Positions 749-58,700 of a stretch of DNA of 64,000 nucleotides are shown here, piece by piece. The position numbers were made by a program, and so were the translations under genes. The stretch is from assembly GCA_051362555.1 (NCBI GenBank), contig CM120641.1:23256401-23320400 (forward strand). The letters run 5' to 3'. The stretch is from Lingula anatina (Eukaryota > Animalia > Brachiopoda). Under the pieces are notes generated by a model. The model made no database searches, was not told the DNA's origin, and saw only the letters and a list, made by a program, of their open reading frames with translations. The first letter of the stretch is position 1. The number at the start of each line of letters is the position of its first letter.

Positions 749-3700
749 CCTATTTTAACTGTGGCTTCTGATTTCCATGCATCACTTGTCCACAAGCCCA
801 GCTTGTCACCCTTGTTTCTGATATTGACTACAGCACCACACACCTCATCACTGCTCTCCTCGAAAGCTTCACCTATTAGGCACAGGAGCTGTGAAAGATA
901 TGAAATATTTGAAAGATTAACAGTTTCAACAAGCATAAGGTCTGAATCATATACAACCTGCTGCAGAAATAGTTCAATTGTACAATTCAAAAAGAACATT
1001 AAGTCTACAACTTACAAAGAAATGCTAAACTGCAGGTAATAAAATATAGCTTATGTCAGTTTAAATCTGCTATGTTTTATATGCTTGATTACACTTTATC
1101 AACAGCATCTTAGTCAACCCTTGCTTTAAATGGCAATGTTATGACATTCTATTTCCAAATATTATTACTCCATTGAAAAAAATCATTGCAGACTATCAAA
1201 AATTCTTATTTTGGTCCACTTACTGTTTCTAGCCAGAACTTGTCTAGATCTGTATGCCTCTGTTGTTTGTTTAGGTTTATTAACCATCTTCCCCCTTTTT
1301 TATTCCTAGCATCTTCCCACATTGGCTGAATACCATCCTGGAGAAGATATTAATGTAATGAATGATTCACAGGAAATGAAATGCAGTTTATGACTGAAGT
1401 ACAGAAGACATTTTTATCTAAGAAAAATGTACTAAAACTGTAAGCAATTCATTTGTAAAACTTGTCAATGTGTGTAAACTGTTTGTACTTATTGTTCCAT
1501 GTCCACCTGACTTGACACCAGAGCCATGTCAAGGTAGCCAGGACCTTAAGAAAACTTCCCATTTACTATTTATATCTGCCAAGACCTTATTTCTAGGTCA
1601 GCACATACTATCCTAGTCTACTACTGTAAATGCACAATCATTTGTTAAAAACATATTCAGTAATTCATCTTAACATCTTAAAACAAAAGCCCAACACATC
1701 CTGTGCCATTAACTTTTCAGCTTACCAGTTTCACCAGATTCCCAAAATCAACTGGTCCTAATTAAGAATCACTGGTCAAAAAAAAAAAAAAAAATTCACT
1801 CAGATCCCTATTACAAATTAATAATAGTAATGACAAGACCTTGATTTTGTCAAATCTTTTAGGAATGCTTCCACCCATGGAGACGCACTCAAAAATATCT
1901 ATTGTAAATTGTGGAAAAAGTCAGTTAAAAAAAAATGCCATGTCAGACCACTTGATTCACACATTCTAAAAAATCTACTAGCCCACACAAAACTTTACTA
2001 TTTTTGGACGCCAGACCACTGGCTAGAGTCGCAGACTGCCAACAATACAAGTCAAAGGATGGTTTCATTCCATAATTTGCAATGCCTTTAGTCAGTCTGG
2101 GCTAAAGACAATAAAACCTTTGTTTATCTGACCTCAGGTCATACTGATCTTAACTTGGAAGGTAAAAGAAATCCTGTGACCTTTGTTTATTCAACCTGAG
2201 GTCACTGACCTTAAAATCAGATGGCAAAAGTGACATCAATCATAAGTCAATTACGGGCAATGTTCCAACAGACAAAGCTGACTTTCAAAAATATAAATAT
2301 ATGAACTCTTCAGTCTTATCCTCTTCCATATATAACTTACAATGTCCCAGTTACTTAACTGTGTTACAAGAATTCAAATTATCCCCATTTAAACTCGAGA
2401 CGTCCCACACCTGTCACATCAAACCTTCCTTAAATCACATTTTCCAAGGAAATATATGAATATTTAGTTCTAAATGGACTGTCAAATTATGAGTAGAGCA
2501 CATACCAAAGAGACTTTCAAATAACCTTATGGGTTAAGCAATTCTGTTAATCTCAGATATCTAAGAGTATAGAAGAGCAAAGTTGGCTTGAAGAAATCTA
2601 TTTCAACAGAAAAGAACTTCCATCTATTTGGGCCACAAGGCTGTAAAAATGCTTTTCTCCTAAGGATGCAAAACGTAATAAAATCCTTACAATGTCATAG
2701 TCTAGACAGAGCATGTGATTTTCATTTAAGTTGTTTCCAGATTACCTCTCTCGAGTAAAGGGCATGCCAAAAACAGCTTGCAGGGCAAGAAGGATATTGC
2801 ACTACCAAAAAAAAAAAATGCCTGCTGAAAAATGTCTTGTTAAAAAACCCAGTTAACCCATTTTATCACTTCAATCCTGAATAATTTTCATACTTTTGAA
2901 CAGTCAGAAAAATAAGTAAATGGCAATCTTAGAAAATTATCTATGTTTGTGTCTGTGAATTTTGTTTTCCCTTTTCATGGACTGGACCTAGACAGCTTTC
3001 CCATTCTCAACAGTGAGCCAGAACTGCCTAGTTAAGTAGCAGTAGATCACACAATTAGCTATAGTACTCGGCATATTTCAGCTAAACGACCCATATATCA
3101 AACACTGAATCAAGAATAGACCACTTCTAGAGATGCATACAGAATAACAAACAGTGCATGTGCCATAATATATTCAGGCATATTACATTTTAAAACACAA
3201 TAATATAATTGTAACCATACAGCACATACAACCAAGTATCAGCCATTTTTGTCATGATATTTACCTTAAATAATGAGTAATCACAGCCTGACGGTAATTT
3301 ACTAGCCGGTTGTATATGGTTATATAACCTACGGATAGAAAATACTCATGTTAAAACACCACAATACAAATGTGGATAGGCAGAGGCAGCAGGAAGTATG
3401 AACCCATACATTTTTAGTAAACATACTTCCCACTCATGACCTCATGGCAGGAAAAAGATGGAAACAACACCTTCTGCTGATCCAAATGGGAACAGCAACT
3501 ACATGGGCTATGTCAGAGGAGAGGGCAGACAATTTACTGCAAAAAGCAATTGTTTCCATCTTCTGTCCCCATCATACAACAGCCTTGTCCGTGTGTTAAG
3601 ACATATAGTGCCTGAATGGTGAACATCAGTAAAGAAATGGTCATTTTTTACTAAAGACTACTAGCATCACGTACCCAACCCCACTGACCTTAATGTACAC

Positions 3701-5827
3701 CAAAAATGCCAGTGCTATTTCCCTCAGCATTAAAAAGTATGTCCTCAATTTCCCCCATCCATGTTTTATATGTCTAAACACACAGCAACACTGACCAAAT
3801 GTTCTCAAACCATTACCTTGAATAAGGAATAATCACAGCCAGCTGACAGTTTACTACATGGCTTAATATTTTTATACACCCTGAAGCCGAAAACATATAA
3901 TTAGCAAAATAATTGAAAGGACAAAAATGTTTCTCATTACCAAATAGTTTGCTGGTTTAGGCTCTGACAACTACACATACCGAGTAAACCCAGTGATATC
4001 ATGCCACTGTGTTATTACACTGTAACTAATGTATTACAAAGGGATACACATCTTACATTTTGAAGTAATTTTAAGTGTAAACAGAGTGAGGAAAAAGCCC
4101 AGCCTTAAGGTCAGTAAAACTGCAGCTGTGCTTCAAAATCTAAATGGATATAAAGGGGTAGTAATACTTTGTTTTAACCCTATATCATTCACGTTGGGTC
4201 AGAAACTTGCAATCATTTGACTAGGATGACCCATGAAAATTATGGGAACATTATAAAATTGTGTGAAGTAGCTATCAGCACAATCACTCAACTCCTCTCA
4301 ATTTAACTTTTATGTGTTTATATGTATTCAAAATACAGGGGATGGAAATTATCCAGTGTTAAAATAAAAGGTGGCAAAATTTCACAAAATTATATTTCAC
4401 ATTTTTTTAATTCAGTTTGTCCTCTTCTTCAATTGTCTGCATAAGAAAAATTATGAAACTTACGCCCAGAAGTCCTCAACTGTATCAAATGATGTTATTA
4501 ACTTGAGATTAGATGCCCAGTCTTTTGCCTTGTCATTTTTGAAGAACCAAAGTGCCCATCTGTTTTGGAGTGGATGTTTAATGATAATTTCTGGGGTCAT
4601 TTCCTGGTCATCTTCAGCTTGATCACCTTTATCCGTTGAATTTTCAGGTTGTCGCTATAATGGATAACCAGAGATTTAATACAACATAATATCCATTATT
4701 AAGTTACTGATATAGTAGAATATATGCAAATGGAACATTTTTGTCATTTTCATTAAAAAGTACTAGTATGTAAGCAAATTGTGTTCTATTGATCTCTCAG
4801 TCATGTTTGGCTGCATACAAACTTTTTCAGTTCATGTTAATGTTTGACCCCTATCCATGTTAAATGGTATGTGTGCAATAATTGTCCAGCTCCAGACAGT
4901 TCACCAAAAATATAAACATTTCTAATTGGATCTCTAACTTAAAATGTTATTTATAAAAAAAATCAGCATTAGGCTAAACAGGCCCCACAGGTCATCATTT
5001 CAATTTAAAAAAAAATTACAATTATTTCAAATTTCTGCAAAAGCAAGTTTATGTGGTCTACTTAAATTCTTAGACATCTAATGTTAACAAATATAAACCT
5101 TGCCCATTAACTAAAAAGATACCTAAAGACCACATAAAAAGATCTTGTTAAGCTTAGTATTACTAGGAAAATATTGTACTAGCTGGAATAAACTGTAAAT
5201 GAAATACAAAGGCAATTTTTGAATGATACATGTACAGGCATACAATAATATATCTGACTAAATAAATAGTTTTTGAATGGATAACCTTTATGTAGGATAA
5301 GTCTTTTTTTAATATAAGGGTATTGGAAGAATTTTTCTTGTTCTAAAAAAGAGCATAACTGATCCATATGTTTTCCAGTCCTGCTTACTATCATAACAAG
5401 TTAATTAGTCATGAAAATTAAATCCAATTTAGTTTGAATAACTGTGGCAGTAGTCAAAAGTTCTCGTTTTCGTAACTAGTCTTTTATCATTTAATTACAG
5501 TTTCCTCTTTTTTTCGTTTCACACTCACTTTCCCAAAGAGGGTACTTGTTTAAGTTACATAACCGTTCAGTGGCCAATTATGGCATTCTTTCACTCGTGA
5601 ACCCATGCCTACCAAAGTCACACGGGGCCACGGCGCCAAACAGCTGGCAAGAAATATTTCAACAGAATAGTTACTAAAAACAAACCGTGTAATATCAAAT
5701 AAGTAATTATTTATGATAACGCTGATATAGGTTTTTCATTGACAGCGATTTAGACAACCTGACTGGTGTGAGTATGTCAAATATCCATATCATTTACCTC
5801 GTTTATTTCGGCCTGCTCGGAAGCCAT
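749..5827 (-). CDS. eIF4E: Eukaryotic translation initiation factor 4E, class I (3' exon lies left of the window)
   Basis: GT-AG exons 5798-5827 (MASEQAEINE), 4464-4654 (..KHPLQNRWALWFFKNDKAKDWASNLKLITSFDTVEDFWA), either 3817-3880 or 3265-3328 (64 nt), 1224-1337 (DGIQPMWEDARNKKGGRW..FWLET) and 749-888 (LLCLIGEAF..CGAVVNIRNKGDKLGLWT). Phases are consistent. Trp at the W43/W56-equivalent positions indicates class I. Confidence 0.97.
3265..3328 (-). CDS. eIF4E: eIF4E alternative exon 3b (canonical variant) LYNHIQPASKLPSGCDYSLFK
   Basis: 64 nt, acceptor ttctatccgtAG, donor AAG|GTaaat. Matches the canonical ALYNHI..GCDYSLFK segment. Confidence 0.95.
3817..3880 (-). CDS. eIF4E: eIF4E alternative exon 3a (divergent variant) VYKNIKPCSKLSAGCDYSLFK
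   Basis: 64 nt, acceptor ttcggcttcAG, donor AAG|GTaatg, phase 2 to 0, no stop codon, homologous to exon 3b. Confidence 0.88.
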
Positions 5828-6412: not shown

Positions 6413-6811
6413 TAATGAATACAGAGTCATATAAAAGATTGCATATATACTCAAAATGATAATGAGCCTGTACATGAAAAGCATTAGTACTTATATTTTA
6501 TTAGCATCTATATTTCTTAATTTTGAAATTCCATGTAAGGCAGCTCTCCTCACTCCACTGGATCCATATAAAGAATGTTAAACATGTATATATAACATTA
6601 ATCATTAATATATAACATTAATCAGAAATAATCACAGAAACCTAAATACCTATATACAATATAAAGACAGATTAAAGCTTCTATTGGAAAAAATTGAAAA
6701 ATTGAAAAGGGGTCTGTATTATACATTTTTTTCAGATTAAATATTTAAACTTTACAAAAATTCCAACTGTCGTGGATTCCAAGTACATTCTATATATTAC
6801 ACACATTAAAT

Positions 6812-6812
6812 G

Positions 6813-6882
<70 letters not shown>
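6812..6882. repeat. (AAT)n immediately followed by (ATT)n: a self-complementary microsatellite
   Basis: Directly visible; it produces the spurious poly-Ile ORF 6806..7003. Confidence 0.95.
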
Positions 6883-6883
<1 letters not shown>

Positions 6884-7567
6884 AGTAACAATTAACAACA
6901 ACAACAACAATATATGATGGTGATAATGATGGTGATAAAATCCTGAAAAATTTAAATTACAGGAAAAAAAATCAATCAACCAGTTGTATCCTTTGTCATG
7001 CAACGATTAAAGATGTTAATTGCTACTGCACGTATACAATGTACATGTAGTACGTACAACTGTTAAATCAATCTAACGTACTGCCCTTCAGAAAATCAAA
7101 CAGTCGCGCAGTGCTTACGCATGGTAAGAATTCAAGACTGTTTGTTTTCCACTGGGAGTGCTTACGTGTGAAAACCTGCTTCCGATCGAGCTTATCAGTT
7201 CATTTCACTGTGCAAACTATTTAGAAATAAGGAGAAATAACGTTTAATGTATGCGCCACCGGTGGATTTTTGTCTAATTTTGGTATTTCAATAGCAATGG
7301 CTGTCCTCAGTTTTTTATAATTTCAGTGTTTTTTTTTTTTTTCTTTTTTTTTTTCTTATTAAGGTTAAACACTCTTAATAGCATTTCACTTTTGTAAAAT
7401 CACCTTTACGGTAGATTACTTGAGAACAGAAAAGGGGGGATTCCGTCTCGCAGTTCACTCGGGACAACCACAGGGGGCTTTCCCGTCACATGGTCAAAAT
7501 TGGCCAATTAGGGCTAAGGAAATAGATGTGCGATTTAGATGCGCAGTGGATCATTATTGACATCAAA

Positions 7568-20403: not shown

Positions 20404-21908
20404 CATGTTCATATTGACTGACTTTTTAGACTTCATGTTTCAACAATCTCACCAATCATGAGACCAAACGCATCATCAATTTATCCACATTTCTAGGAGG
20501 GATTTTATACTGCATAGTGGAATATTTCCTTTAGTGCGTGTCTAGTAGCATTTTTAATGGACTATTCTTCTTAACTTATTGTGCTGCTTTCGTCTTGTGG
20601 CTGTATTTTGAAATGAGGTGGCCAAATGTGCACGGAAGAATGTGAAACTACATCGACCATTCGAGAGTGATTGGAGAGCCACAATTTCAAACTATGTGTA
20701 TGATAGCGTAAAAAAAAGTATATTTTATTTTGTACAATCTTTGTTAGTAAACTATTTAACCATAGATGATTCTTTTGATATTACAAATTTTCAGTGTAGG
20801 TTAACCAGGAGATTTAGCAATAACATATGACCTCAAAATGGAAGATCTCATGAAATAAAAAAAATCCTCACTGAATAAGACCAGATTTAAAAGTGAGTAC
20901 GGGTACCTGCACGTGACTCCACGGAAATTTCCAAAAGTGACCAACATTTCGATTGTATTTGGAATAAATTTCTTTTACCCTGACGATGTTGTACATTTCA
21001 GTTCTTCGTTACTTGAAAAAGACGAGTTGATGCCCTGTTCATCCACAAGAAAAAAAGCTCTCCGATTGTTTTTGCCCGATTTTCGTTTGGTTGATATGAC
21101 ACCACTTCGTAATGGTACGTTACGTACTTTGTAGCTTGCAGTAATGTGGAGGGTGGTACTTAAGTTTTTTCATTTTCCTTTGATAGAATTATGTCAAAAC
21201 CACCTTTGAAATCGTTTTATCCAGACGTTTTCTAGGTCTATTCGAAAGTTCTATTTGGTCCTAGCTAAATCGTGTTTCTGTATATTATAGCGACTTTTTA
21301 AAACAATTATCATATATGATATGAAGGGTCCAAATTGATAGTTATACCCAGTTACTGGTGTCACCGACTTCGTTTGGTGGTTGTCAAAAAATAAAATTTA
21401 GTTGGACTGCTATGGAATCAGAAAATGGATTGGAGAGGGTGGAGCTTTTGTTAATTGACACAGAATGCAACGCGTGATCCGTGAACACCCGAAACCAGTT
21501 TCAATGTTATAAATATACCTCTGCGTTGGGGGATGGGAATGTATCAAGAATGCAAATCTCAGATAGGAAAATTGCCATTTGACCAAATGACACAGGTCGT
21601 GATTTCTAAATAATGCGTTTCATTGTAAAGAGTGTGGGAATAGTACATTACGCTACATTTCAATTAACATGTACTTACAAGGCAAGAAAGATGTAAATGT
21701 GTTATCACAGCAAGGATTGTCTGTTAACTTAGCGTTAAAGTCATAGAGAGAGACTAAAAAGTAATTTAGTAAAACAGACTGACAGAAAAGACGACGGCAT
21801 TGCAGTTGTTGAGATTCTTATCTGCAGCATTCCAATTACTGCATCTTTACAGCAGTGCCAAGCATGATACTGGAGCCGAGTGGAAGATAAGTTGAAAAGA
21901 TGGGTAAT

Positions 21909-22082
21909 GGGGGCGTCTCGATAGTCCGAAGGTTCATTGGTCCGAAGGTTCATTGGTCCGAAAAGTGGTAACATTTTTATCGATTTTTTAATCAAGGGTT
22001 CATTGGTCCGAAGGTTCTATAGTGAACATTCGGACCAATGAACCTTCGGACTATTGAACCTTCGGACTATCGCTACGGTCCC
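21909..22082 (+). mobile_element. MITE with GGG termini, 16-nt subterminal repeats and 8-bp TSD
   Basis: TSD TGGGTAAT at 21901-21908 and 22083-22090. Arms built from GTCCGAAGGTTCATTG repeats, inverted on the right (CAATGAACCTTCGGAC). Confidence 0.88.
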
Positions 22083-24489
22083 TGGGTAATCCTGACATTT
22101 TTATTTTATTTTTTATTTTACATAGAATACACTCAAGATGCATGATACTTGCACAGAGTAATTGCATATCTTGGCATGCCTTCTAATATGTGCCCACAGA
22201 ATAAGGGCCCAGTGCTGGTCTACTGAATGCATTGGAAGGCTCAACAAAGCAACTGCACCAAATATTATTTTGAGTGCGCAAAAAAGACACAAAAAAATTC
22301 CTGGGTCCCATATAATATAATGTTATATGAACAGTGCTAAGGTTAACAGTGCTAAGGTTAGCCAAAAGTATCGAGGTAAGTATATGGGGCGAATGTCACC
22401 TAAACAAAGTAAAGCCAGAGAAAACGGACTGGCGTTCCTGTCGGTGCAGTTTGTTATCCAAAGGGACCACTGCTGTTTAATTTAAGTCAAAGTAAATTTT
22501 TGGTCTAATTGCATAGAACTATTTTCTACATCGAAAGTTCTTAATATAAAAGGCCCCAGGTAACTACAAGTCAAGTCACTATTAGGCTCACATTTTGAAG
22601 GGATGTAAAAACACGGAGAGCATTGAATATGAAAAGATTTGTTTTAAATTTAATAATGAAGAAAGAAAATGTATGAACTGGAAAAATAAATATAAAGCAA
22701 TGCACACATATAAACGAGATGATGTCAATGAACTCACAATCATAAACCTTATTACACATTTGGACAATAAAGCCCCTTGCAGTCATCAATTATCACTTAT
22801 TATAATAGCTGTTTAAAGCACTTTGAATAAAACGGCATTCAAAGCCAAAAAAATATATGGAAAGCAGACCAAAATCCAACGTGAAATCTCTTTATACGAA
22901 AAATATACAACTTTGGGGACTACTCCTTTTTTTCATGGACATACACCTTTCGCCACAGACGATTTGGACCTTTTGTCAACGCGCCTTATGACAAGGCCTA
23001 GTCTATGACAGTATCTAATAAACGGTGAAAAGACGCTGGGAGCGTGGTTGTGCCTAATAAAAAAGACCAGGAGATAGGTAAACCTGTTCAGGAGGATAAA
23101 AAAATCCTATGATAAAACTAATCGTGAGCTAACATATAGATAAAATGCCCCGGTATAGAGGCTTTAGGCGTGTCAGCGGAAGCTCTGTTCGTAATTAGAT
23201 TCACCACAGCACGCGTTCTCCACGCGTCCGCACGAGTCCGGCACGCGGGGAGTGGACAAACAGCAGCTAATTACTTCAAACAAAAGCCAAGTTTAGCGCG
23301 GTCAGAGGCGAAGATAATTGGCGTATCACTTTCATTCCTGTTGAAAATAAATATTGTTCCATTCTCTATCTTCTGTTGCAATTGTGATACAACCGCTTCC
23401 TGAAATCTTAGCACAGCTGCGATGTCGCAAAGTGAATTTAAACAACGTTTCATTTTTAATCAAAATACTATTGAATTTATCAATATGTTGTCCTTCTCCG
23501 GCAAAACACACTGATATCGAAGAGTACGCTTCTACTTTCAAATTAAGTTAAAGGTCACATCAGCATAAACATAAAACCCTGGATTTTATAGATATTGCGT
23601 TTTATAATAACGTTTACCCTTATAATTATTTGATTCTTGGATTAATATTAATAAATCTGTCTCATGAAATATATCACCGTGTTTTTGCCAATCAGTATAT
23701 ATACAGTATATATATATATATATATATATGAAAAGAAAACAAGAAAAGAAAAAAAATCACTAGGCTTACAAGAAGTTGAGAGTTAAGGATGACGGAAATA
23801 ACCTTGAACATGAAATCGACGGAGCAAACTCATTGCCACTGAAGCAAAAACATTTTATGCATTACTCACACTTTAAGTTTTTTTCCTGTAATCAACTTAA
23901 TTGTTGGTTATGTGGTTGAGGCGTGGTGTTACCTATCTGCACAGCGGGGACTATTAACCGCTGCTCAGCAATTTCTGGCGAAGCACCGTCGCTTCTTGTC
24001 CAGCAACAGTGGGCGGTGACGCCATGTTACTTACGTTTTCAAATCATTTCAATTTCTAAAAACTTTGCATTTTTGCTTATTTTCTCCATATATTAATTAA
24101 ATAAGGAATTCGACAGCATTGTCATTTACAGCACCTACTAATGTTTCGTCTGTGCTTTCAAATCTCCTGGGGCCCATACTCTATTGTCAGCATGAGCCAG
24201 TTTTTCTCTATCTTTGTGCAGGACTTTCGTCATTTCGCCAAGTTGTCGATACAAATTTTCAAGCTAGCGCAATCTAATCTCTCCACTTCAAGATAAAGTA
24301 ATTTGACTCAAATTAAACATGGCCCACGAGCTCCTCTGCTGGGCGTCTCTTTTGTGTCTAGACTCGGAAACTTTATCACTTCAAAAGAGAAGACATGCAG
24401 AAAACGCTGTTGGATTTAAAGCGCGCTACCTCAAGAAGAGGAGTAGTTTTACAACCAGAACTCCAAGAACACGGACACCTTCTACAAAG

Positions 24490-54500: not shown

Positions 54501-55352
54501 TTTTACTCACTTTGCAAGTTTGATGAGGTATGTTTTGTTATCAATATCATAGATATTTACCACCCTCATTCCAAGAAACCTGAAGGCAAGATAAAATAGA
54601 AATTAAATACAATGTTGAATATGTTATCACTGTAATGACATTCATTCTCTGAATCACAAAACCAGTATTTATAAAGCAACATGTAATGTGTGAAGGACCC
54701 TTTAAAGTGAGAAACAGAGATGAGGAACAACAGTTTTGATCCAAACAGACTAACAAGACAGTCTCAATGTAGATAAACTGGAGCCATAGCAATAATCTGA
54801 GGGTTCAATAGTCCAAAGGTTCATTGGTCCGATTGTTCACTATAGAACCTTTGGACCAATAAACCCTTGATTAAAAAACTGATTAAAATGTTACCATTTT
54901 TCGGACCAAGACCCTTCAGACTATCGATATGCCCATGATAAACCAAGGAGGTCGAACTTTCTTGGAACTCCTTGGATAAAAAATGCTGTATCAGCTGGAG
55001 ACGTCATATTTTGAAATAATTTAAAAGAAAAATAAACCTGTCAAAAATTAGGGGTGGGGAGACCTCTAAACTGAATCATGTTAACTCGTCGTTAATCGGC
55101 GCCTTAGAATGACATCCTAAGATGTTAAACATGTCCCTCGTCAAACATTATGATCGGATGACTCATTCATCATTCATTCGTTCATTTTTTTTTCAAACGA
55201 CTACGTCATGTTGTGCAACTTGACCATTAAAATAATTAATGGGAATCAGATGTTGGTCGTTTGTTTGCATAATCATGGTGCTTCAAACCTCACCTTTCAT
55301 TAATTTCAAAAACAACAGCTGCAATATCTATCGTGCTGAACCTGGTCTTCAT
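42622..55352 (-). CDS. NEMF: Ribosome quality-control complex subunit NEMF (Rqc2/Tae2/Caliban)
   Basis: About 33 GT-AG exons. First 55294-55352 ([10 protein letters not shown]), 54511-54579 ([18 protein letters not shown]), 54165-54267 ([17 protein letters not shown]), 53842-53967 ([13 protein letters not shown]). Later exons encode [67 protein letters not shown] and IPVCAPY. Last exon 42622-42702 ([15 protein letters not shown]). Confidence 0.97.
44185..44229. repeat. (CT)n/(TG)n microsatellite
   Basis: Directly visible. Confidence 0.9.
45771..45832 (-). pseudogene. Intronic partial duplicate of NEMF exon 47330-47403 with an inactivated donor
   Basis: Near-identical to 47315-47375. Donor CAG|GTACAT has become CAG|ATACAT and the acceptor half is missing. 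Confidence 0.85.
54780..54934 (-). mobile_element. Older, inverted copy of the 21909-22082 MITE family in NEMF intron 1
   Basis: Shares GGTTCATTGGTCCGA, GTTCACTATAGAACCTT, CCCTTGATTAAAAAA and AAAATGTTACCA with the reverse complement of 21909-22082. GATAAAC occurs on both flanks. Confidence 0.8.
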
Positions 55353-55701: not shown

Positions 55702-58700
55702 ATGACGGAAGCAATTTTAACAAAACTACACAGTTCTAAGAAATTAGAACGCGATAGGGGGCTTAATGAACTAAAAGAACACCTAAAATCTACAGATGAA
55801 GCTGGAATTTCTGCTTTAAAGGAAACTTTCACAGGATATTTGAAAGATGAGTCTAGCACATGGGAGATAAAGCATGCAGGTTTGATGGGTTCTTCTGTGT
55901 TATTGTCTCTGTGTGACTGTGGGGAGGATTACGGTACAACCATGCAAGAAGAAGCACTGAGGCTTTTAGAAGATGAGGAGTTTCGAGTGAGATTAGCTGC
56001 AGGTTAATAATTCCGACTCGTATAATCACTAGGCTTTTGGTTTTTAATTGACTTTGGAAATGAAAACAATTAATTTTGCTCCATTTATTTTAGCTTGAGT
56101 ATCTGACGAATCCTGTCTGTGCTACAAACACGATTTTGTCTGACTTAAATTTGTAGCCTGATTTTATTTTAGGCAGTTTTCCATTTTCCATGGCCCCTAG
56201 AACCCTAATCATTTCTTTCTTTTTTCTAGTGTGAATTTAAGAGACCATTCCCAGAGACTATCGTACTAACTTTGGATCGAACTATCTCCAAGGGGATTCT
56301 TGTTTAATTGCAATTAACTTAAACAATTAGATGTCTAGCTGTCACACCTACTGAAGCTGATAGGGGGTAATTAACTATCATTTAGCAGCTTTAGTAGGCG
56401 TCGCAGACATCTAAGCCACTTAAGCTGAAAGCAATTTAGCGAGAAACCCTGTGGATATGGACCAATCCTGTTAGATCGATCTAGGGATGGGAACCCAGTC
56501 TCATTGTTTTTTATCATTTTGTTCCAAAATGATTTTCATAAATTGATCTCGTATATAAAGGGTGCCAATATCATCATTTCAACTAGAAGGGCAAAATCAG
56601 CTTATAGAAATAAAGAAAGACCTTTTACGTATGGAAATGTTATTTTGTTGTTCTTTCACAAAATTAATTTCTGTAACCAGGTGAAGTAATGGGAGCTCTT
56701 TGCCATCGCTTTGGTCCAGTTATCTATGCCAACACCAAACAAACCACACTGCAAGGTATTAGAGATAACCTGGAAAGACAGCCACGTGGATTTGGAAGTG
56801 AGAAAGAGAAAGAAGAGGCAGACAGGCTGATGCAGAAATTGTACAACTCTTGTACTTCTTCCTCAGATTCTGACTCAGATGATGACCATGGTGGGGGTGG
56901 TTTTAAGTTAGAAAGGGTATGTGATTATCCTTTTTCAATTGAATTTTATGTGATTTATAAGTGACTAAAAATAAAAAACTTTACCTAAGGTGAGGAAAAC
57001 AGCTAACATTAGTAGCTTAAAACAGTTGACAGTTATTTATTTGCTGAAATGACCATATGCATATCTAATTTATTAATTATGATGAGATATAGATAAATAA
57101 AGTTTTAATATCTGACATTTTATTATCAGCAAAACAGCACTGATTCTGCACAGATATTCCATGACACAGCAGGATGGAAATCCCTAGAAACATGGATGAA
57201 GTAAGTTTGTTTTATGTTATAAAAAACACAAATACAAGAGATGATTTTAGTCTAAAATAATAGTTTTCCCTCCTCATAACAATTTTTTCATCAAAAAATA
57301 TTATTTTCAGCTCCTTTTTTTCTATCAGTTTACCTAATGTGTGTTAAAATGAGATCCAAACAGTATTTAGATTTCACAATCATTTGGAATGTTTTTAAAG
57401 ATGAGTGAGTTTTATTTTGGGGGTAAAGGCGGTTACAGGGTTAAAAATCTGGAAGTAAGGTTTCATTGTGGAGTTTTGTTTCATGTCATAAACAATATTT
57501 TGTTCCATGCCCTAAACAATATTAAATATTAAACTATCTAGATTTTATAGACATTTGATACGTATGTCATCAGTTTTAAAAAAGAAGCCTACCTGTTTTA
57601 TTTTGATACAGGTGTTTGCAGTGCATGTTAGAGAACTGTGGCTACAGCTTCAACCCTTACATTGACCAAGAACTACTGGACCTTGTTTTTGACACTCTCA
57701 ACCACACCAATAGATTTGTCAGGGAGACGGGGTACTATGTGTGCGGTACCCTTGTCAGCTGTGGACTAGATGATACTGGTAGGTATATTAAGGTAAAGTA
57801 GATAGTGTATTGAAAGCAATGCTTTGGCACACTTTCCATTCAAAAATATCAGAGGCTATAAAACCTTGTATTTTCATTTTTTTTTACAAGCATTTACTTT
57901 TATTCATTTGAGATGTTTCAATTTCAATGAGACACCTTCTGCAGTTCGTTGCACTCCTTAATGTTTTTGAAAAGAGAAAATGTAAGGCCTTTAAATTTAC
58001 AAAAACAGACTAATGTATATTAAACAAAATATCAGAGGCTTATATTGAAAAAAAATTAATTTATAGCCCCAGCTGGTACAGAATTGACCAATGAAAATGC
58101 AATTTATCGTCATGGTCAGCAATTTGCTGAATACCTTGGAAAAGGCTTAGCAGATAATTGGAGTCAGGTATGTAATTTTAACTTGGCTTATATAGTTTAG
58201 AAACAGTAATTTATTATGGCAATTGTTTCAATGAGACTTTCTACTAAGCATTTCACTATCTTGCATTTGTTTTGCATTTTTGTCCCCCCAGTTAGAGGCT
58301 ACTATAACAGCTATAGCCTCATTCCCTGATTAAGATGTCTTGTGAGGCATTAAAATTTTGGAGTGGTTCATGATTTAATACTTTGTCTTTATGCTTTAAG
58401 ACAATTTGAAAATGCTTTTTATCATCACTTAACTCTGGATTATTCAGGTCAGACTTGCAGCATCTGTGGCAACACGGAAATTTCTGGAAAGTATCCACTC
58501 TGAGAAGGCCAGAGAACCATTTTACCCAATTCTAATTCCTAGAATGTGTCTCAACAGGTAGATTGATAATGCACTGTTCAGGGTTTGATGTTTGACATGT
58601 AAAGTAAGACAATGGTTAGTGCACTGCATGTCACTGAGTAAGGTTCTTACATATACTAATTAACATTACTTTATTGGAGTCATTCAAAGTAGTGGTTGTT

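Follow-up and report, generated by a model that had tools for sequence, protein, structure and literature searches.

A predicted fold in the intron between the duplicated third exons of Lingula anatina eIF4E: a candidate duplicated-exon pair with local, non-competing stems

Introduction

Mutually exclusive splicing of neighbouring exons is guided by RNA structure in several genes. In the accounts cited here, exclusion in Dscam1 and 14-3-3zeta is brought about by competing pairings between introns (PMC6071210), and competing pairings likewise guide exclusion in srp and ATE1 (PMC4691838, PMC7797038, PMC12962786). Another described class comprises human tandem duplicated exon pairs of the frame-shifting type, which, in the part of the source cited, are homologous, equal in length and phase, located in a folded domain and of a length not divisible by 3, one member being ubiquitous (PMC5740500). 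The present work deals with an exon pair that shares these traits, found in the eIF4E gene of the brachiopod Lingula anatina. The DNA analysed is a stretch of 64,000 nt (assembly GCA_051362555.1, contig CM120641.1, positions 23,256,401-23,320,400, forward strand), hereafter the window, within which all positions are counted. In it, eIF4E has two copies of exon 3, named 3a and 3b, which lie 552 nt from each other. Three local stems are predicted to form in the intron that separates them (Table 1).

The locus differs from the human frame-shifting pairs in that its minor exon, 3a, is known from sequence and not from junction reads. With the docking-site and bidirectional systems (Dscam1 exons 4 and 6, 14-3-3zeta, srp and human ATE1) it shares the presence of intronic RNA structure beside duplicated exons. 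The helices of those systems, however, are described as joining different introns or covering the acceptor, and as competing (PMC6071210, PMC4691838, PMC7797038), whereas the Lingula helices that are significant are local, lie in one intron and are mutually compatible. The locus belongs, as a candidate, to the known class of duplicated-exon pairs; its local, non-competing stems fall outside the docking-site definition, and the exchange of exons would affect a regulatory surface of the protein.

Steric hindrance is a further route to exclusion. Dscam1 exon 17 is reportedly one of the steric-hindrance exon pairs. The steric pair 4a/4b of OGDH resembles the Lingula locus in having exactly two exons, and its block lies, like the one proposed for Lingula, in the intervening intron; its branch points are reported to lie a linear 25-41 nt from the donor (PMC7969005), whereas in Lingula 465 nt separate the predicted branch point from the donor of 3a. 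The steric limit is placed near 50 nt between donor and branch point in the sources cited (PMC5740500, PMC7969005), and limits of 50-60 nt are in use (PMC5740500, PMC13762713). Finally, the zipper stems of the yeast genes RPL7B and RPS17B are alike in that stems within one intron shorten the distance from donor to branch point, but they are described as enhancing a constitutive intron, whereas removal of the Lingula intron would give a frameshifted RNA. Among the matches listed by full-text searches of openly available papers, no title or abstract opening dealt with the eIF4E exon pair.

Folding of the intron between exons 3a and 3b

A reading of the window made from its letters alone (the sequence-only reading) had proposed that this intron is largely folded into stems. 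Checked letter by letter, the four arm pairs that it listed are present with the match counts that it gave, namely 3392-3400/3422-3430 (9/9), 3455-3467/3550-3562 (13/13), 3591-3607/3767-3783 (16/17) and 3617-3626/3693-3702 (9/10), and the three outer stems enclose 340 of the intron's 488 nt. Dinucleotide shuffling of the intron, repeated 2000 times, yielded a perfect stem of 13 bp in 0.2% of cases, a stem of 16 matches and one mismatch in 0.05%, four perfect stems of at least 9 bp in 0.1%, and the 13-bp and 16/17 stems together in none. A single perfect 9-mer stem appeared in 39% of the shuffles, which leaves the 9/9 and 9/10 stems with little weight on their own.

Folding energies also set the intron apart. 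Its sense (minus) strand folds at -155.4 kcal/mol, compared with -132.6 +/- 5.8 kcal/mol in 100 dinucleotide shuffles (z -3.94, 0/100 as good), and the fold of the antisense strand is weaker (z -2.04). When tiles of the gene were compared, with 15 shuffles each, the intron reached z -4.67 versus -1.94 to +0.81 in nine other eIF4E intron tiles. The prospect, raised by the sequence-only reading, that the intron might fold no better than other introns can thus be set aside: within the eIF4E gene, the folding excess is confined to the one intron that has to be spliced out for 3a and 3b to be joined. Across the whole window it ranks fourth among 130 minus-strand tiles (4 shuffles each, pooled standard deviation).

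Folding of the intron in a 1414-nt context gave three tandem domains whose closing helices, of 19, 16 and 13 bp, have pair probabilities of 0.93-0.99. On the sense RNA, G-U pairs lengthen the stems to 19, 16 (+8) and 13 bp; the count of 10 G-U against 0 A-C pairs in the helices was left unused as evidence, since the helices had been picked on the sense strand. The inner architecture departs from what had been proposed. The letters of the nested stem 3617-3626/3693-3702 and of a small hairpin at 3628-3652 are there, but both structures belong to the minimum-energy fold of the antisense strand and are replaced in the sense fold by the helices 3761-3755/3619-3613, 3688-3679/3634-3625 and 3666-3661/3654-3649.

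The stems might instead belong to a structured non-coding RNA hosted by the intron, either similar to a small nucleolar RNA (snoRNA) or a stable intronic RNA. Translation-factor genes often host snoRNAs, and a few reads do fall within the intron (depth 2.7 at 3432-3608 in RNA run X15 and depth 2 at 3497-3624 in RNA run X14). These reads show no pile-up of ends, however; the best Rfam match has an E value of 0.97 and 21.7 bits against a gathering threshold of 47, and hairpin sizes and ACA spacing, in our reading, misfit the H/ACA layout. A hosted RNA as the owner of the stems has hardly any likelihood.

Copy number and conservation of the intron

In each of the DNA runs X10 and X6, one contig covers the intron when the whole contig sets are mapped at 80% likeness. 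The same mapping caught a 37-nt foreign piece at 3900-3936, which indicates that short copies are visible to it, and BLAST found no copy of the intron elsewhere in the window. The intron is single-copy and not a miniature inverted-repeat transposable element (MITE) or other multicopy element, on the basis of two of the 11 listed runs of DNA or unknown type, in which older, diverged copies would be missed. This speaks against the multicopy MITE remnants that the sequence-only reading had named as an alternative origin of the arms.

The data on conservation come from individuals of the same species label, X10 being a diverged individual. Compared with the window, X10 carries 11 substitutions and two indels in the 488 nt of the intron, 11 substitutions and four indels in 256 nt of the upstream intron, and no change in the 128 bases of exons 3a and 3b. 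With all events counted, the intron is quieter than the upstream intron (13/488 versus 15/256, p 0.04); with substitutions only, the difference is not significant (p 0.17). Three of the X10 substitutions lie in strongly paired positions: one, at 3550, turns an A-U into a G-U pair of domain 2 and so keeps it, one, at 3388, breaks the terminal pair of domain 3, and one breaks an inner 6-bp helix. A 7-nt insertion lies in the loop region enclosed by domain 2, and X10 and X6 both keep the outer helices of domain 1 as they are in the window. The pattern is compatible with constraint on the stems, although it is not a demonstration of it. The reading favoured below supposes that the stems are kept by selection.

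Splice signals and pairing partners

According to the sequence-only reading, folding would either bring the 3a donor towards the 3b branch point or sequester splicing signals. The motif TTTTAAC on which it relied is present at 3356-3350 as the predicted 3b branch point; its A lies 22 nt before the 3b acceptor and the branch point is mostly open (0.71 unpaired). Neither the branch point nor the 3b acceptor is strongly masked. A distant branch point near the 3a donor was considered and rejected, there being no yUnAy motif within 85 nt and the nearest one, 86 nt away, being paired.

Folding is predicted to reduce the 465 nt that separate the 3a donor from the 3b branch point to 112 nt plus 3 crossings (~115-121 nt) if strong helices only are counted, and to 63 nt plus 3 crossings (~66-72 nt) with the weak flanking helices. 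This range of ~66-121 nt lies above the limit of ~50 nt. Under strict steric exclusion, structure would hold the 3a donor within ~50 nt of the 3b branch point and block U1/U2 assembly across the intron. The path with flanking helices does come near the limits of 50-60 nt, and in the ensemble the path is below 50 in 94.5% of samples when the splice sites are held open. However, shuffled introns give equally short ensemble paths, the strong helices alone leave the longer distance, the weak closing helix loses its pair 3344-3800 in X10, X6 and X20, and the known cases rest on linear distance. Strict steric hindrance made by structure is, in our judgement, unlikely.

Two further pairings involve exon 3a itself. 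A predicted hairpin covers its donor, whose positions -3 to +6 are 0.15-0.16 unpaired, the lowest value among the gene's six donors. A stretch of the upstream intron may pair with the exon body; the duplex of 4128-4108 with the 3a body, one of five pairings tried, was matched by 4/128 random targets, and positions 4089-4136 carry no substitution in X10 and X6. Both predictions, which had no place in the sequence-only reading, are weak leads.

The likeness to Dscam1 and 14-3-3zeta drawn by the sequence-only reading was not borne out, because those genes use competing pairings between introns and such pairings here equal random targets. Long-range pairing between introns was rejected as a candidate after the best duplexes with the flanking introns had been matched by 40/74 and 48/74 random 583-nt targets. 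A competing arrangement of the Dscam1, srp or ATE1 type can nevertheless be drawn, in which 4122-4105/3693-3676 would loop out 3a and 3617-3591/3198-3172 would loop out 3b, in competition with the local stems. Both duplexes exist, at -21.0 and -22.1 kcal/mol, and their arrangement accords with the bidirectional model as outlined in the source (PMC4691838). For 3617-3589, however, pairing with the local partner is much the more stable, at -31.7 kcal/mol, and neither long-range helix reaches a probability of 0.05 in the 1414-nt fold, which, together with the random targets, makes competing long-range pairing very improbable.

Origin and reading frame of the duplicated exon

Exons 3a and 3b are homologous neighbours of equal length and same frame, with AG/GT sites and no stop, identical at 45 of 64 nt; no third copy was found in the 64-kb window. 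They differ at 11 of 12.5 silent sites (proportion of silent differences, pS, 0.88) and at 8 of 50.5 replacement sites (proportion of replacement differences, pN, 0.16; p 7e-6), the replacements in 3a being L75V, N77K, H78N, Q80K, A82C, P86S and S87A in human eIF4E numbering. Exon 3a thus looks to be under protein-level constraint, and the excess of silent changes together with the intact splice sites suggests that it is translated somewhere, now or for long in the past. Judged by its silent-site divergence and by flanks that are no longer similar, the duplication is old, so the 13-19-bp stems of the intron would not be left over from it.

The length of the exons has consequences for the frame. 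Joining 3a to 3b shifts the frame and brings in a stop at codon 98; if neither exon is included, the stop comes at codon 93. As both stops lie ahead of further exon junctions, nonsense-mediated decay would hide either product. Since double inclusion frameshifts, mutual exclusion need not involve the stems.

Metagenomes were scanned with a probe made of the end of exon 3 and its donor, which gave 68 loci, 37 with eIF4E matches and 31 discarded as chance. None of the 36 animal eIF4E loci that were scored, of which 15 span both flanking exons and several come from the same animal, had a second copy (their best score was 27, that of the window 116), so the duplication looks lineage-restricted; none of them provided a usable orthologue of the intron. 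No exon-3 isoforms were seen among the cluster members of 10 eIF4E proteins, and a search with the 31-aa frame of 3a gave four weak matches. One arthropod-like eIF4E fragment (P0170) with a partial second exon-3 peptide some 105 residues further on was rejected as a likely assembly artefact, its two cluster mates having no such copy. The eIF4E isoforms X1 and X2 of Littorina saxatilis (P0060, P0163), both of 208 aa, differ only at residues 192-208, a difference that points to duplication of the last exon, with alternative use of the copies, in a further lophotrochozoan.

Exon use in RNA

Splicing was followed in six of nine RNA runs of the Lingula anatina label, with 6-30% of each run's reads, joints listed from 3 reads upwards and tissues not stated. 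Exon 3b is the default choice in the RNA examined: four runs from three studies gave 171 reads for the junction of exon 2 with 3b and 175 for that of 3b with exon 4, and two further runs gave loose ends of 57/25 and 17/6. In run X14, the 3a donor boundary marks an increase in read depth, from 4.06 to 6.69, and the acceptor a drop, from 6.0 to 3.38. Such steps fit a spliced read or two in addition to unspliced reads and are no proof of 3a use. Unspliced reads around 3a and the intervening intron (3329-4463) were seen in five of the six runs at depth 1-4, with almost none over intron 1, which is of equal length. They possibly reflect slow splicing of the exon cassette, although the reads are few and may include duplicates.

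Possible role of the stems in exon choice

The reading that we tentatively favour is that the stems dampen the joining of 3a to 3b, with decay as a backstop, 3b being spliced and 3a likely a rare substitute. The three predicted stems would shorten the path from donor to branch point and lower 3a-3b joining through crowding and masking of the 3a donor, and transcripts with both exons, being frameshifted, would probably be removed by nonsense-mediated decay. On this reading the stems, which are local and do not compete between introns, would act as a damper and not as a docking-site switch. In its favour are the folding excess of just this intron, the better fold of the sense strand, the single copy, the age of the duplication, the smaller number of changes than in the upstream intron when all events are counted, the strongly paired 3a donor and the early stops of the products that contain both exons or neither.

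Several observations weigh against this proposal. None of the 11 X10 intron substitutions is compensatory, three of them hit sites among the 208 that are strongly paired (p 0.37), and X10 breaks two strong pairs where 3.1 are expected (p 0.34). The ensemble distance from donor to branch point is 36-44, compared with 28-33 in shuffles, and so is no shorter. At the 3-read threshold, the six RNA runs contain no junction of 3a and no 3a-3b joint, so that neither the use of 3a nor its exclusivity is supported by junctions. In the accounts cited, yeast stems that join donor and branch point enhance splicing (PMC12311795, PMC2536676), and the predicted structure at exon 3 of fly Rdl did not control exon choice (PMC13762713).

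It is also possible, if rather doubtful, that exon choice does not involve the stems, which would then be ancient inverted duplications present in single copy, or decayed elements; splice-site strength and RNA-binding proteins would make the choice, and decay would remove double inclusions. The frameshift alone would explain exclusivity, and the source cited assigns 60% of human clusters to the frame-shifting type (PMC5740500). The absence of covariation and of significant stem avoidance in X10 agrees with this explanation, as does the fact that three of the 130 window tiles fold better than the intron and two more have z below -3. What speaks against it is that three separate long stems tile just the 3a-3b intron, which is single-copy and folds better on the transcribed strand than on the antisense strand.

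The yeast zipper stems point to another outcome, in which the Lingula stems would promote 3a-3b joining, the frameshifted RNA would be destroyed and the level of eIF4E would be tuned. Yeast intron stems that shorten the donor-to-branch distance are described as enhancing splicing and serving autoregulation (PMC12311795), and RNA with both exons, having a premature stop, would be scarce in steady-state reads. However, 3a keeps eIF4E-frame residues (pN 0.16, pS 0.88, p 7e-6), which points to a substitute exon, and the 3a-3b junction is not among the joints listed for the six runs. A poison outcome of this kind seems improbable.

Gene model and other features of the window

The exon pair belongs to a class I eIF4E encoded on the minus strand at 749-5827 (Table 1). 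The 63 residues translated from exon 2 match P0001, a protein labelled Lingula anatina eIF4E, at 100% identity, and the junctions of exon 1 with 2, 2 with 3b, 3b with 4 and 4 with 5 are all GT-AG and backed by RNA reads. The public model P0001 (185 aa) runs from exon 3b into the intron that follows it (3122-3328, minus strand), lacks exons 4 and 5 and does not represent exon 3a; it is likely a mis-annotation, since RNA reads give normal splicing from 3b to exons 4 and 5. RNA reads of another locus map on 1818-1852, indicating a short stretch repeated elsewhere in the transcriptome.

Table 1. Coordinates of eIF4E exons, splice signals and predicted RNA structures within the window
Feature	Positions	Strand	Details
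eIF4E coding exon 1	5798..5827	-	ATG to first donor; exon 1-exon 2 junction reads 28/57/20/13 in four RNA runs
eIF4E exon 2	4464..4654	-	191 nt, ends in phase 2; translation match to P0001 and junction reads
Upstream-intron stretch	4098..4128	-	Predicted to pair inside exon 3a (3856-3840) or with 3693-3676; duplex -24.2 kcal/mol
Exon 3a, divergent duplicate	3817..3880	-	64 nt, AG/GT sites intact, open frame
Exon-intron hairpin over 3a donor	3808..3834	-	Predicted; 11 bp, -6.7 kcal/mol
Intron between 3a and 3b	3329..3816	-	488 nt, GT-AG, three stem domains in tandem (predicted fold)
Domain 1	3589..3785	-	Outer helix of 19 bp, 3785-3767/3607-3589, with one U-U, then a 5x5 loop, a helix of 7 bp and inner arms; p 0.97-0.99
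Domain 2	3453..3564	-	16-bp helix 3564-3549/3468-3453, then 8 bp rich in G-U; p 0.93
Domain 3	3388..3434	-	13-bp helix 3434-3422/3400-3388; p 0.99
Predicted branch point of exon 3b	3350..3356	-	TTTTAAC, A at 3351; motif match only
Exon 3b, canonical eIF4E exon	3265..3328	-	64 nt, default choice; junction reads
eIF4E exon 4	1224..1337	-	Sequence and RNA junctions
eIF4E exon 5	749..888	-	Sequence and RNA junctions; later exons beyond the window

Other parts of the window are also strongly structured. Three tiles rank above the intron: one at 21873-22360 with an inverted-repeat element, one at 6745-7232 with an AAT/TTA repeat, and one at 56033-56520 (z -4.8). The first is the strongest fold of the window (z -7.5); its long inverted arms consist of short units in tandem, and it looks like a miniature inverted-repeat element. 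Within the second, a perfect fold-back at 6810-6880 consists of an AAT run directly followed by a TTA run. A further well-folding tile lies at 54569-55056 (z -3.7).

Protein consequences and biological meaning

The residues introduced by 3a are exceptional. K77, N78, K80 and C82 occur in 0/140 homologues and N77 in 140/140, counted among the 140 of 168 proteins that could be scored, many of them near-duplicates. In the source cited, N77 hydrogen-bonds R63 and T68 of 4E-BP1, and H78 contacts P71 (PMC5538437); in simulations, H78 and Q80 contact L641 of eIF4G (bioRxiv 10.64898/2025.12.23.696204). Exon 3a changes N77, H78 and Q80, two of which contact 4E-BP1. The closest parallel is 4EHP (eIF4E2), which has likewise lost the Asn that binds R63 of 4E-BP1: with Ser at the corresponding position (S99), the 4E-BP1 peptide is reported to be bound 10-fold more weakly, and S99N restores binding (PMC5538437). 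The difference is that 4EHP is a separate gene, whereas the Lingula combination N77K, H78N and Q80K would come from a class I gene by exon choice. The product of 3a could show altered 4E-BP binding or altered eIF4G binding, or it could be a decaying protein.

A bolder proposal is that Lingula makes a 4E-BP-resistant eIF4E by exon choice, with 3a replacing the near-invariant N77, H78 and Q80 that hold the linker of 4E-BP, and that this choice is governed by the three-stem intron through structural steric hindrance without docking sites. We consider it unlikely in this full form. If true, it would amount to a bypass of mTOR/4E-BP control at the level of splicing and to a route to mutual exclusion without docking sites, in which steric hindrance is exerted by structure rather than by short sequence. 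If, on the other hand, 3a is unused or the stems are inert, the locus would hold an ordinary duplicated exon policed by decay. The single-copy two-exon cassette, of 1,100 nt, offers a compact test of whether folding alone blocks splicing across an intron. Cap-dependent translation has its control point in eIF4E, a protein with a nearly invariant core; an exon that rewrites exactly the 4E-BP contact patch would be a natural way of releasing translation from its repressor at some stage or in some tissue.

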